A DNA stretch of 64,000 nucleotides from a virus (lineage: Duplodnaviria > Caudoviricetes): positions 1,191 through 65,190 of IMG/VR virus record IMGVR_UViG_3300033068_000352; one strand, 5' to 3'. Below, in pieces: positions 18,853 through 54,798 of the stretch (the stretch's first letter is position 1; every line of letters begins with the position of its first letter). The notes beneath the pieces are model-generated. The model was not told the origin of the DNA. It did no database searches and was given only the letters and a program-made list of their open reading frames with translations. Made by a program: the position numbers and the translations under genes.

Positions 18853-19034
18853 TGAGTTTTTTTAGTATTGAGTACATTGTGAAGGCACCGGATTTGAACA
18901 CGGCAACGGCCATGGCGCACGACAACGTGTATCTGGCCGAGATTGAGGTGGAGCAGGTGCGGGTGAAGGAAGTTGAGTCTAGCTCACGTATCCGTACGTT
19001 CAACGAGCCAGCGGAGAAGGCCCCGACCGACTAA
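18852..19034 (+). CDS. Hypothetical protein
   Basis: ORF track. Confidence 0.65.
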   Translation: MSFFSIEYIVKAPDLNTATAMAHDNVYLAEIEVEQVRVKEVESSSRIRTFNEPAEKAPTD

Positions 19035-19384
19035 TGTCGTGCATTAGGTTCGTGGGTGGCCCCGTCGGTAACGGCGGGCCACCTTTGCCTTTCTCTAGCC
19101 CAAAATCATCTATAGGCAAGTTTAGGCGACTGGTCGGTATGGCTCATTCAGCCGATTGGGAGATTAGGCAGGCGGCAGCAGGAAATCCCATGACTCCGGT
19201 TCGACAACTTATTTCACTTGCCAAGGATAAGGATATCCATGTAAGATCGTGGGTGGCTCGCAACCCAGAATGTCCTGAAGCAGTTTTGAGATACATGAGA
19301 GATAATGACAGCGAAATGTCAATACGAGAGTTTGCTAAATACGAGTTGCAGCGTCGCCAAGATGTGATAGACTCTAAAGAATAA
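19034..19384 (+). CDS. Leucine-rich-variant (LRV)/HEAT-like repeat protein
   Basis: Repeats WEIRQAAAGNPMTP and IHVRSWVARNPECP. Confidence 0.75.
   Translation: MSCIRFVGGPVGNGGPPLPFSSPKSSIGKFRRLVGMAHSADWEIRQAAAGNPMTPVRQLISLAKDKDIHVRSWVARNPECPEAVLRYMRDNDSEMSIREFAKYELQRRQDVIDSKE
19365..19373 (+). promoter_or_regulatory. Extended -10 promoter for tRNA-Trp/Met
   Basis: TGATAGACT in the context GATGTGATAG, the same context as 19767-19776. Confidence 0.55.
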
Positions 19385-19443
19385 ACACCTTGTCCTCTGG
19401 CTTGGATCGTCGGTAGGCCACCAACATCACGGCAAGGTTTTCT

Positions 19444-19515
19444 AGGCACTTAGCTCAACGGTAGAGCAGCAGTCTCCAAAACTGTAGGTCGGGAGTTCAA
19501 ATCTCTCAGTGTCTG
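19444..19515 (+). tRNA. trnW: tRNA-Trp(CCA)
   Basis: Full cloverleaf; loop CT-CCA-AA; T loop TTCAAAT. Confidence 0.92.
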
Positions 19516-19531
19516 CGCACCAATCAAACAA

Positions 19532-19604
19532 TGCGGGGTAGACCAACGGTAAGTCGCTAGCCTCATAAGCTAGGCATTTGCAGGTTCGATTCCTGTCCCC
19601 GCAA
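19532..19604 (+). tRNA. tRNA with CAT anticodon (elongator Met or Ile2)
   Basis: Cloverleaf; CTAGC-CTCATAA-GCTAG; lacks the initiator GGG/CCC stem. Confidence 0.9.
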
Positions 19605-19723
19605 CGCAACACAAAACAGTTATGGCGTCTGGTCAACTAAAACGCCCACAGGGATTGCCGACCCAACGGCATATGCGCTAGCCGCATAATAAAGTTAGAG
19701 CCTCATTCTTAGCCAGAAATACG

Positions 19724-19758
19724 GGTCGCACCCATTGGCAGGATGGGGCCTTCTTTTT
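19724..19758 (+). terminator. Probable intrinsic terminator after tRNA-Met
   Basis: CCCAT/ATGGG hairpin followed by TTCTTTTT. Confidence 0.55.
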
Positions 19759-19770
19759 GTCGTTTCGATG

Positions 19771-19779
19771 TGATAGGAT
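19771..19779 (+). promoter_or_regulatory. Extended -10 promoter for a leaderless leader peptide
   Basis: TGATAGGAT, then 6 nt, then ATG 19786. Confidence 0.7.
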
Positions 19780-19785
19780 TTAAGA

Positions 19786-19839
19786 ATGATCAAGTTTACG
19801 CAAAATCACCCGCAGCCCTTCGCGGAGGCGGTTCTTTAG
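19786..19839 (+). CDS. Putative attenuator leader peptide MIKFTQNHPQPFAEAVL
   Basis: Leaderless start; CAA AAT CAC CCG CAG CCC run; stop 28 nt before the terminator. Confidence 0.65.
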   Translation: MIKFTQNHPQPFAEAVL

Positions 19840-19866
19840 CGTATCAAGAACTTGTGACGAATAACT

Positions 19867-19903
19867 CGCCTCTTACTGTTTTCACAGTACGGGGCGTTTT
19901 TTT
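19867..19903 (+). terminator. Intrinsic terminator (attenuator) before tRNA-Asn
   Basis: CGCCTC/GGGGCG plus TACTG/CAGTA stems, then T7. Confidence 0.85.
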
Positions 19904-19917
19904 ATTTTACAACTCAA

Positions 19918-19988
19918 TCTCCATAGGTGTAAAGGCTGCATGTGTCGCTGTTAACGACTTGGACGTGGATCGTTACCACGATGGAGAG
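19918..19988 (+). tRNA. trnN: tRNA-Asn(GTT) with a non-canonical T loop
   Basis: TCTCCAT/ATGGAGA acceptor, G73, loop CT-GTT-AA, T arm CGTGG-ATCGTTA-CCACG. Confidence 0.85.
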
Positions 19989-20021
19989 CAAGGTTCGATT
20001 TTTGTGTGATAGCATTCAAGT

Positions 20022-20408
20022 ATGACATTATCAGGACAGGCGAAGCGAGATTATCAGAATAAGTGGCTACAGGAAAGAAGGAAGGCATGGATTGATTCTA
20101 GGGGTGGGAAATGTGAAAAGTGTGGTTCTCAAGAATCATTAGAGGTGGACCACATCGACCCTAAAACAAAACTAATGAATCCACGATCAATTTGGAGCAG
20201 AAATAAGGAAATCCGAGATGCGGAACTGGCCAAATGTCAGGTACTATGTAGCGAATGTCACATAGAGAAAAGCAAGCTGGATGCCTTTGTTCCCATTGAG
20301 CATGGAACATATAAGGGTTCTAGGCGTTGCAATTGTCAAGAATGCAGAAAGACCATTGCACCGTATTGGCGAGAATATAGAAAGAATAAGCAGTCCCGAT
20401 TAGCGTAA
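20022..20408 (+). CDS. HNH endonuclease inside the tRNA cluster
   Basis: CEKC...LEVDHIDP...CQVLCSECH; own TGATAGCAT-N6-ATG promoter. Confidence 0.88.
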   Translation: MTLSGQAKRDYQNKWLQERRKAWIDSRGGKCEKCGSQESLEVDHIDPKTKLMNPRSIWSRNKEIRDAELAKCQVLCSECHIEKSKLDAFVPIEHGTYKGSRRCNCQECRKTIAPYWREYRKNKQSRLA

Positions 20409-20464
20409 TGGCAGCACGACTGGCTCTGAACCAGTTAGCGGAGGATCGTCCCCTCTGTCGGGAG
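20394..20464 (+). tRNA. trnQ: tRNA-Gln(CTG) with a non-canonical T loop
   Basis: TCCCGAT/GTCGGGA acceptor; ACTGG-CTCTGAA-CCAGT; T loop ATCGTCC. Confidence 0.85.
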
Positions 20465-20479
20465 CGAACAACTGAATAA

Positions 20480-20552
20480 CCGAGCGTAGGCCAGCGGCTA
20501 GGCCACCTATTTTGGAAATAGGGGATCGGAGGTTCGAGTCCTCCCGTTTGGA
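20480..20552 (+). tRNA. trnP: tRNA-Pro(TGG)
   Basis: CCTAT-TTTGGAA-ATAGG; canonical T arm. Confidence 0.9.
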
Positions 20553-20554
20553 CT

Positions 20555-20630
20555 GCGGCCATGGCAGAATGGTAATTGCCTCCGATTGTGGATCGGATGT
20601 ACGTGGGTTTGATTCCCACTGGTCGCCCCA
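20555..20630 (+). tRNA. trnH: tRNA-His(GTG), CCA encoded
   Basis: TCCGA-TTGTGGA-TCGGA; C73 then CCA; T loop TTTGATT. Confidence 0.9.
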
Positions 20631-20648
20631 CGTAGTAGACTTGTAAAC

Positions 20649-21188
20649 ATGAGTAAAACTTTGGCAAAGCTGAGCGGTGAGTCCGTTGAGGAGCGCAGTG
20701 CCATGGACGAGCGCATCCTGTCGCATGCCCGCAAGTCTATCAGCGAGATTGCACAACTGACCGGCCTTGAACCGGGGGAGACTGCTGAGAGGCTTTCCAG
20801 ACTCTTCGAGGACCGAGGATGGCGCACTGAGCGTCAAGACGAGCGCCTGATGCTGATCGAGCTTGGCGACCTGATTACCGATGCACGCACGCGTTTGAAA
20901 AATGTCAGCGACGAGGACTATGCCGGTGTGGCTAAGATTGTGCTCGGCGCGATGCAGCAGATGGCTGACCGGTGGGACAAGCGCCGTCAGCTTGTGGAGA
21001 ACGACATTGAGAAGATTACCCTCGCCAATGCGCGTCTTTTCGGCAGGGCTTTCGATGCGGCCCTTCAGCATTTGACTGACGGCCTGAAGCAATTGCACCC
21101 GGAGATTACCGATGAGGAGATTGATACCCTCACCGACGCGGGGTTGGGCATGGCGAAGATCGTTATTGATGAGAAGGTAATCCTCTAA
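20649..21188 (+). CDS. Probable terminase small subunit
   Basis: N-terminal HTH-like segment, helical; directly upstream of the large subunit. Confidence 0.65.
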   Translation: MSKTLAKLSGESVEERSAMDERILSHARKSISEIAQLTGLEPGETAERLSRLFEDRGWRTERQDERLMLIELGDLITDARTRLKNVSDEDYAGVAKIVLGAMQQMADRWDKRRQLVENDIEKITLANARLFGRAFDAALQHLTDGLKQLHPEITDEEIDTLTDAGLGMAKIVIDEKVIL

Positions 21189-27034: not shown

Positions 27035-27081
27035 ACGACAACGTAAGACATGCCCCATCGGAAGCGGTGGGGTTTTGTCGT
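27035..27081 (+). terminator. Terminator after the capsid gene
   Basis: GCCCCATC/GGTGGGGT hairpin with a T run, flanked by ACGACAA/TTGTCGT. Confidence 0.75.
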
Positions 27082-27103
27082 TTCCATGTGCTAATGTGGA
27101 AAC

Positions 27104-27718
27104 ATGAATAAACAAACATGCAAGTTTTCAGAGTGTGACAATAAGGTACGCATAGGTGGTTATTGTACGAGGCATTACAAGGAAGAAGCTGACGCTGGCA
27201 CTGTTAACGCAAAAAGGTGCAAATGTGGACGCTGGGCTATCGTTGGTCCCAACTGTGAAGCGTGCTATAACAGACTAAGACGCAAGGGCGATTTTGGATA
27301 TGAAATTTGCGTTGGCCCGGAGTGCGAAAAACCCGGTACACTAGCTCTAGGGCTTTGCAGCGCTCACTATAAGCAGAAACTTAAGGGCTGGGAGTTGAGG
27401 CCTTTGCGATTCCAGAGAGACGCATCGGAGTGGTCAGAGTGGACACTTACTAATCAGGGGTATTTGATTAGGGAGCGTCGTCAGGGGGCAAAGGTTCTTC
27501 GGCAGTTGCAACATAGATTCATCATGGAGGAAAAACTTGGTCGCCCCTTGTCCGACAAGGAAACGGTTCATCACCGAAACGGTATTCGTGATGACAATAG
27601 GGTTGAAAACTTAGAGCTATGGTCCGGAAGGCATCCCAAAGGTGCAAGAGTGGAGGATCAATTAGATTGGGCTATTGAAATTCTTTCACTTTACCGCCCT
27701 GAACTTCTGGTAAACTAG
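27104..27718 (+). CDS. Free-standing HNH homing endonuclease
   Basis: HRFIME...ETVHHRNGIRDDNRVENLELW; Cys-rich N-terminus; own leaderless promoter. Confidence 0.92.
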   Translation: MNKQTCKFSECDNKVRIGGYCTRHYKEEADAGTVNAKRCKCGRWAIVGPNCEACYNRLRRKGDFGYEICVGPECEKPGTLALGLCSAHYKQKLKGWELRPLRFQRDASEWSEWTLTNQGYLIRERRQGAKVLRQLQHRFIMEEKLGRPLSDKETVHHRNGIRDDNRVENLELWSGRHPKGARVEDQLDWAIEILSLYRPELLVN

Positions 27719-54724: not shown

Positions 54725-54798
54725 AAAACCATACTCCCCTTAGTGTTGAACTACCAGTTTACATCTTCACATCGGTTGCGTATGTTCTGTCCTTGTTG

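Follow-up and report, generated by a model that had tools for sequence, protein, structure and literature searches.

A probable leader-peptide attenuator and related systems

Leader-peptide attenuators, such as trpL, hisL, leuL, pheL and the multivalent thrL and ilvL, possess a short leader open reading frame (ORF) rich in codons for the sensed amino acids, together with RNA segments that engage in mutually exclusive 1:2, 2:3 and 3:4 pairings, and a ribosome that has reached the stop codon masks segment 2. T-box elements, which control aminoacyl-tRNA synthetase and amino-acid genes, bind uncharged tRNA directly by means of one specifier codon and without a ribosome. This report concerns an element located before the tRNA-Asn, Gln, Pro and His genes of a virus of the Caudoviricetes, IMG/VR record IMGVR_UViG_3300033068_000352. 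The stretch of DNA analysed, referred to as the window, comprises 64,000 nucleotides (positions 1,191 to 65,190), has a G+C content of about 52% and represents nearly the whole of this 65,190-base record, which is rated complete. The element (Table 1) is probably a ribosome-mediated leader-peptide transcription attenuator placed before phage tRNA genes. An initial annotation made from the letters alone had proposed such an attenuator, and the co-variation seen among relatives, two further leaders in a related phage (L001) and folding under ribosome footprints lend support to the proposal. It draws on the anatomy of the leader, its conservation, its co-variation with tRNA content and its alternative folds in silico, from which the start site, translation, stalling and read-through are predicted.

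The element resembles the enterobacterial attenuators in its codon-rich leader ORF, its four segments, the intrinsic terminator just before the genes that would be regulated and the predicted sensing of several amino acids (as in thr and ilv). It differs in that the cargo consists of phage tRNA genes rather than biosynthetic genes, and in that the ORF is leaderless, with no Shine-Dalgarno sequence and a predicted start site at the ATG. With the T-box it would share the coupling of the state of a specific tRNA to terminator read-through via an antiterminator, whereas the reading itself is here proposed to be mediated by the ribosome. The closest leaderless precedent is provided by mycobacterial polycysteine small ORFs (sORFs), at which a ribosome stalled on codons for a single amino acid is reported to alter RNA structure downstream (Canestrari et al., 10.1101/834739). 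These too are described as leaderless sORFs at the 5′ end of a polycistronic transcript; in the Cys ribulon the stalled ribosome unmasks the ribosome-binding site that serves the next protein gene, whereas here a terminator competes and the cargo is tRNA. The mycobacterial system is moreover cellular and devoted to one amino acid, whereas the phage element is viral and is predicted to sense 3-10 amino acids.

An Rfam search (cmscan) of positions 19000-21000 at E ≤ 1 gave no match to leader families (Trp_leader, His_leader, Leu_leader, Thr_leader and others) or to T-box; it returned tRNAs, Plastid-ycf2 antisense to two tRNAs and a chance PreQ1 match in the HNH gene, and when the whole window was scanned at gathering score, tRNAs were the only matches. 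No description of leader-peptide attenuation of tRNA genes, in phage or cell, was found in the full-text literature searched.

Anatomy of the leader and proposed mechanism

The extended -10 element, the 6-nt spacing and the ATG at 19786 are present as initially described, and transcription is predicted to start at the A of this ATG. The same layout, TGNTANNNT followed by 6-7 nt and an ATG, heads five other long genes of the window (22899, 24455, 27104, 29969 and, on the minus strand, 43594), among them the gene that follows the terminase and three genes for endonucleases, that at 27104 encoding an HNH_3 endonuclease. Because the layout is common to these five genes, leaderless first genes can be taken as normal in this phage; other window genes have good Shine-Dalgarno sites.

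The six control codons spell the amino acids of the downstream Asn, Gln, Pro and His tRNAs, as previously noted, with the reservation that the tRNA-Asn gene is sub-threshold, and codons for the putatively sensed amino acids are clustered in the manner of an attenuator. The accompanying chance estimate of about 2e-5, calculated as (10/61)^6, was too low, as 11 runs of at least six Asn, Gln, His or Pro codons occur when all six frames of the window are counted (shuffle mean 1.8). Among the 953 window ORFs of 8-40 codons that start with ATG, a run of this kind occurs in one, which is the leader itself (QNHPQP).

Sequence and folding bear out the four-segment layout, that is the 1:2 hairpin, the alternative 2:3 pairing and the T7 terminator. 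Segments 2 and 3 are joined by 10 pairs with one bulge, the duplex of segment 2 with the terminator arm amounts to -14.1 kcal/mol, and the fold of the leader RNA is more stable than 200 of 200 shuffles (z = -3.3). A short ORF at the predicted 5′ end, a terminator before the genes to be regulated and, in the folding models, an antiterminator that depends on ribosome position are all found here, as in known attenuators.

Table 1. Features of the leader and tRNA region in the window, and of the two L001 leaders
Feature	Position	Strand	Basis or remark
Terminator-like hairpin and T-run	19731..19758	+	Closes the upstream tRNA-Trp/tRNA-Met unit; part of a terminator+promoter module repeated at 27050-27097
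Extended -10 promoter TGATAGGAT	19771..19779	+	Followed by 6 nt (ttaaga) and ATG 19786
Leaderless leader ORF, 17 codons and TAG (19837-19839), peptide MIKFTQNHPQPFAEAVL	19786..19839	+	Read from sequence; conserved in L162
Control codons CAA AAT CAC CCG CAG CCC (Gln Asn His Pro Gln Pro)	19801..19818	+	Read from sequence
Segment 1:2 hairpin (CCGC..CC / GG..GCGG)	19810..19831	+	Folding; predicted to sequester segment 2 without a ribosome; possible pause hairpin
Segment 2, GGAGGCGGTT, 5′ strand of antiterminator, inside codons 13-16	19824..19833	+	Folding
Segment 3, AACTCGCCTCT	19863..19873	+	Predicted to pair with segment 2 (antiterminator) or with 19891-19896 (terminator)
Intrinsic terminator: 12-pair interrupted stem 19867-19896, -16.6 kcal/mol, then TTTTTTTATTTT (T7)	19867..19903	+	Folding
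tRNA-Asn(GTT)-like gene, sub-threshold, possibly decaying	19918..19989	+	ARAGORN with -ps only
Inserted cassette: promoter TGATAGCAT (20007) and leaderless HNH endonuclease gene (20022-20408)	20007..20408	+	Pfam HNH
tRNA-Gln(CTG), tRNA-Pro(TGG), tRNA-His(GTG)	20394..20630	+	ARAGORN/Rfam-level tRNA detection
L001 leader a: TGGTACGAT, 6 nt, ATG, 17 codons, peptide MTTMYALHFAPELDPGA	ATG at L001:914		Terminator, then tRNAs Ala, Met, Pro, His, Asp, Glu, Thr, Glu, Tyr, Phe and three Leu
L001 leader b: TGCTACGAT, 7 nt, ATG, 21 codons, peptide MFMIISTSKRGGQSVTAIGLR	ATG at L001:3774		Terminator, then tRNAs Ser, Ser, Lys, Gly, Gly, Thr, Thr, Arg, Gln, Lys, Ile, Cys and Arg

In the proposed mechanism the transcript would begin at the A of the start codon and its 17 codons would be translated as a leaderless mRNA. 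A ribosome that reaches the stop codon would mask segment 2 and allow the terminator to form, and if no ribosome is loaded segment 2 would be locked in the 1:2 hairpin, so that the terminator would again form and the transcript would end before the tRNA genes. A ribosome lingering at the Gln, Asn, His and Pro codons (A-site up to about codon 9-10) would leave segment 2 free to pair with segment 3; this 2:3 pairing would block the lower terminator stem, and RNA polymerase would read into tRNA-Asn and beyond. The quantity sensed would be the decoding speed at codons for the amino acids of the downstream tRNAs, amounting to a demand-driven tRNA supply, where the trigger could be loss of host tRNA, defence nucleases or no more than a high demand. 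Since its product, tRNA, relieves the signal, such a circuit would limit itself.

Conservation and co-variation in L162

In the related contigs L162 and L163 the small terminase gene is directly preceded by tRNA-Asn, tRNA-Gln and tRNA-Pro, arranged head to tail, and this block contains no tRNA-His and no HNH gene. The L162 leader consists of TGATAGGAT, 7 nt, an ATG, a 17-codon ORF (MFSLTQNQPQPNVGAVA), TAG and a terminator with a T-run. When the window and L162 are aligned, the promoter stretch GATGTGATAGGAT is identical (13/13), the ATG, GCGGTT and TAG are conserved, and the core ACGCAAAATCA[C/G]CCGCAGCCC matches at 20 of 21 nt, with 17 of 18 nt shared in the control codons. The sole change in the core replaces CAC (His) of the window by CAG (Gln) in L162, where the run reads QNQPQPN. 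The encoded residue differs at codons 2-4, 12-14 and 17, indels are found solely outside the ORF, and the flanks have diverged.

The antiterminator contains a compensatory pair, A41:U86 in the window versus G41:C84 in L162, and the same change turns Glu into Gly. As the one base that differs in segment 2 is here matched by a change in its partner even though the residue is altered, this part of the ORF appears to be constrained as RNA and not as peptide. It had been suggested that relatives be inspected for control codons that change together with the tRNA set, and the outcome agrees with that idea: L162, which lacks tRNA-His, has a Gln codon in place of the His codon, and the L001 leaders match their own blocks.

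Two further leaders in L001

L001 carries more than 20 tRNA genes upstream of the terminase. When the rule of promoter plus ATG is applied to its first 6.2 kb, exactly two sORFs are obtained, which are unrelated in sequence and each of which is followed by a terminator and a tRNA block (Table 1). For all four leaders the non-start codons that fall within the amino-acid set of the downstream block were counted and compared by a binomial test with the phage’s own protein composition. The window leader has 6 of 16 codons within its set (P = 0.022) and that of L162 has 7 of 16 (P = 0.0028). In L001 leader a, 15 of 16 codons belong to the set of its own block (Ala/Met/Pro/His/Asp/Glu/Thr/Tyr/Phe/Leu) and 10 of the 10 block amino acids are used (P = 3.6e-4), and in leader b 15 of 20 belong to the set Ser/Lys/Gly/Thr/Arg/Gln/Ile/Cys (P = 2.4e-3); when the two are scored against each other’s block, P rises to 0.98-0.99.

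These comparisons bear on the view that promoter, sORF and terminator form a stand-alone unit that makes a small RNA or micropeptide and adjoins the tRNA genes without controlling them, the codon match being coincidence plus shared ancestry. The unit is complete in itself and its terminator is strong, attenuator RNA can act in trans, as reported for rnTrpL (PMC6614838), and the upstream terminator+promoter module is a repeated cassette that also heads the HNH_3 gene. Yet the peptide is not conserved beyond the control codons, whereas the length of the ORF and the pairing segments of the RNA are kept, and of the two unrelated L001 sORFs, each fits the tRNA block that follows it but does not fit the second block. 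There is, in addition, no phage-type promoter between the terminator and the tRNA, so that under this view the tRNA would have none of its own; a weak sigma-70-like match, TTCACA-16-TATTTT (19881-19908), which is unlike the promoters of this phage, lies inside the terminator and may nonetheless act as one. A stand-alone unit is judged unlikely.

The block after leader a also harbours a GOLLD RNA (Rfam RF02032, 186.8 bits; L001:1941-2363) with an embedded tRNA at 2009-2075; if the attenuator works, leader a would gate this RNA as well. A further stretch of about 650 nt without a convincing ORF is situated between a structural gene and tRNA-Asn in L232 (645-1290), upstream of the L001 array, and no Rfam family was detected at gathering score over the portion that is present in L001.

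Ribosome position and alternative RNA structures

Folding under ribosome-footprint constraints, which had been proposed as a check, reproduces the logic of an attenuator in the window. Here transcripts were cut just before the 3′ arm of the terminator and positions A-15 to A+12 were masked around each A-site codon. With no ribosome the 1:2 structure sequesters GGAGGCGGUU and the 5′ arm of the terminator remains unpaired. When the A-site is at any of codons 1-9 (and more weakly at 10), GGAGGCGGUU pairs with AAC-U-CGCCUCU and takes the six bases of the lower terminator stem, whereas a ribosome between codon 11 and the stop codon covers segment 2, which again leaves the terminator arm free. The L162 leader behaves in the same way with a longer antiterminator (16 pairs), which unlike that of the window forms in the absence of a ribosome too. 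L162, L001a and L001b all have a terminator, that of L001a with a poor U-run, and the L001a antiterminator, CCUAGUCGG/CCGACUAGG, overlaps the stop codon, being free with the ribosome at codons 1-13 and lost from codon 15. Complementarity to the terminator arm as good as that observed was reached by 88 of 2000 dinucleotide shuffles for the window, 9 of 2000 for L162, 7 of 2000 for L001a and 205 of 2000 for L001b.

An alternative is a translation-dependent switch that is not specific for amino acids and reports the loading or movement of ribosomes, that is general capacity or host shut-off, with codon choice being secondary. The L001a leader, with 11 different amino acids in 17 codons and an antiterminator free over codons 1-13, does resemble a broad sensor, and the match is better at the level of amino acids than of codons. 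This explanation is nonetheless considered improbable, as the window and L162 show a tight run of only 3-4 amino acids that tracks the presence or absence of tRNA-His, and in L001 each leader shows specificity for the block behind it.

The tRNA genes and the inserted HNH cassette

Of the tRNA genes said to lie downstream, those for Gln, Pro and His were detected, and that for Asn is sub-threshold and looks degenerate: its cloverleaf is complete, with an unusual T-loop (AUCGUUA) and a D-stem that is weak, Rfam gives no match at E ≤ 1, and ARAGORN reports it only when its threshold is relaxed. The HNH cassette (19990-20408) is inserted in the window between the tRNA-Asn-like gene and tRNA-Gln, which in L162 are spaced by 4 nt. 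Its promoter TGATAGCAT stands 6 nt before the ATG of the HNH gene, positions 20005-20025 are 86% identical to 19769-19789, and the 3′ end of the HNH gene overlaps tRNA-Gln by 15 nt. A T-arm-like sequence, AAGGTTCGATT, is found at 19990-20000, just before the HNH promoter.

The caveat of the initial annotation that the promoter at 20007 could bypass control of Gln, Pro and His stands, and in sharper form than it was given. Judged from this arrangement, the circuit in this phage would be compromised and partly bypassed, owing to the cassette and the degenerate-looking Asn gene. The leader may even be a relic here, functional in an ancestor and probably still so in L162 but uncoupled by the HNH insertion and by decay of tRNA-Asn; the sub-threshold state of this gene, the separation of the attenuator from Gln, Pro and His by a cassette with its own promoter and the uninterrupted block of L162 all point that way. 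The promoter, the ORF, segments 2 and 3 and the terminator are, however, intact, and the core is so close to that of L162 that continuing selection is indicated; read-through would, besides, still add to transcription of the HNH gene and three tRNAs. That the leader is intact and highly conserved speaks for its continued use, and a relic is given a low probability.

Points that weigh against an attenuator

Several observations tell against the attenuator interpretation and should be set beside the evidence in its favour. The comparison of leaders comprises no more than three lineages (window, L162 and L001) and four leaders (window, L162, L001a and L001b). The replacement of His by Gln is one event, to which our own rough arithmetic assigns a chance of about 0.06, and the composition test on the window by itself is modest (P = 0.022). 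Matching by anticodon and wobble is weaker than matching by amino acid, with P = 0.11 for the window (4/16), 0.019 for L162, 0.018 for L001a and 0.003 for L001b, and under standard wobble CAA is unreadable by tRNA-Gln(CUG). As regards structure, equilibrium folding of the full-length window leader keeps the terminator at nearly all ribosome positions and displays no switch, so that the decision, as in trp, would have to be a kinetic one taken during transcription. A stall at codons 10-11 would mask part of segment 2 already, and the logic of L001b is ambiguous, its ORF containing a second copy of the terminator 3′ arm. Finally, the attenuator directly precedes only the degenerate-looking tRNA-Asn, and the promoter at 20007, to judge by its sequence, can drive Gln, Pro and His independently.

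Other promoters, tRNA genes and relatives

Positions 19731-19779 and 27050-27097 of the window are near-copies of one terminator+promoter module (a hairpin, then TTTTGTCGTTTCNATGTGNTA), the second of which heads the leaderless HNH_3 gene at 27104. Directly after tRNA-His, at 20631-20651, a -10-like TAGACT is followed by 7 nt and the ATG (20649) of a small-terminase-like gene, which looks leaderless. In the region 19364-19605, promoter-like TGATAGACT lies within the 3′ end of an LRV/HEAT-repeat gene with no ATG after it; a 65-nt untranslated leader follows, then tRNA-Trp and tRNA-Met, a unit without a leader ORF. A leader ORF was not found at the other tRNA genes of the window, namely Trp/Met (a promoter without a following ATG) and tRNA-Leu at 54798. 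In two relatives an extended -10, TGGTAGCAT (L162:2838-2853) and TGGTAGGCT (L233:95-114), stands 6-8 nt before the mature 5′ end of tRNA-Met and tRNA-Glu respectively, so that the transcript would begin at or beside the first base of the tRNA. An 88-aa ORF (19743-20009) and minus-strand ORFs across the leader region were rejected as genes, as they traverse promoter, terminator and tRNA alike and L162 does not conserve them.

A query with the terminase against 5.8 billion proteins yielded few close relatives. Identity of the large terminase (TerL) to that of the window is 82% for P0002, 74% for L162 and L163 (Logan contigs), 63% for P0004, which has 1.5 kb without called genes upstream of TerS, and 52% for L001 (IMG/VR). 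The nearest cultured phage is Pseudanabaena phage Pan2 (54%), followed by Microbacterium phages (37%), and prophage terminases from a scan of genome contigs (Actinomadura, Nonomuraea, Deinococcus and others) reach at most 32%. No tRNA genes were found in the covered parts of L164, L165/L166 and L168-L171, and in L183 and L184 the called genes, from which alone this was judged, leave no space for a tRNA block. The record of Pan2 has no annotated tRNA in its final 7 kb, four tRNAs are present in Microbacterium phage RunningBrook, where no leader with terminator is convincing, and L233 (TerL 62% to that of L001) begins within a tRNA array, the position of a leader falling beyond the contig. An exact-pattern scan of IMG/VR with the conserved 20-mer gave one match, which is unrelated and coding (L167, no tRNAs). 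Among sequencing runs, no RNA run was listed as containing the stretch, and three contig-only runs yielded just the probable source contig and tRNA fragments unrelated to it. Several terminase relatives in a group comprising P0007, P0021, P0032, P0034, P0074, P0086 and P0115 are about 890-900 aa long as opposed to about 545, and some of these long forms have matches to Pfam PF05204 and PF14528, which suggests an element inserted in the terminase gene.

Implications for phage tRNA genes

Why phages carry tRNA genes, and when they express them, is debated; the ideas put forward include compensation of codon usage, the making good of host tRNAs that have been degraded and escape from anticodon nucleases. 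There is, in our estimation, about an even chance that gating by leader peptides whose codons name the amino acids of the tRNAs behind them is common among phage tRNA operons, which would constitute an unpublished class of tRNA-supply sensors. If so, the sensor would start the synthesis of phage tRNAs upon depletion of those of the host (for example by host shut-off or by tRNA-cleaving defence nucleases) and stop it once decoding recovers. The leaderless version found here, with its 3-4 amino acids, would be a minimal form, and the leader would evolve alongside the gain and loss of tRNA genes. Classical attenuation would then extend to non-coding cargo and to leaderless mRNAs, and a simple rule would be at hand for annotating the regulators of tRNA blocks in metagenomic phages. 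Phages would regulate their tRNA supply by demand, and the control codons would offer a direct and mutable handle on the debated functions of phage tRNAs.

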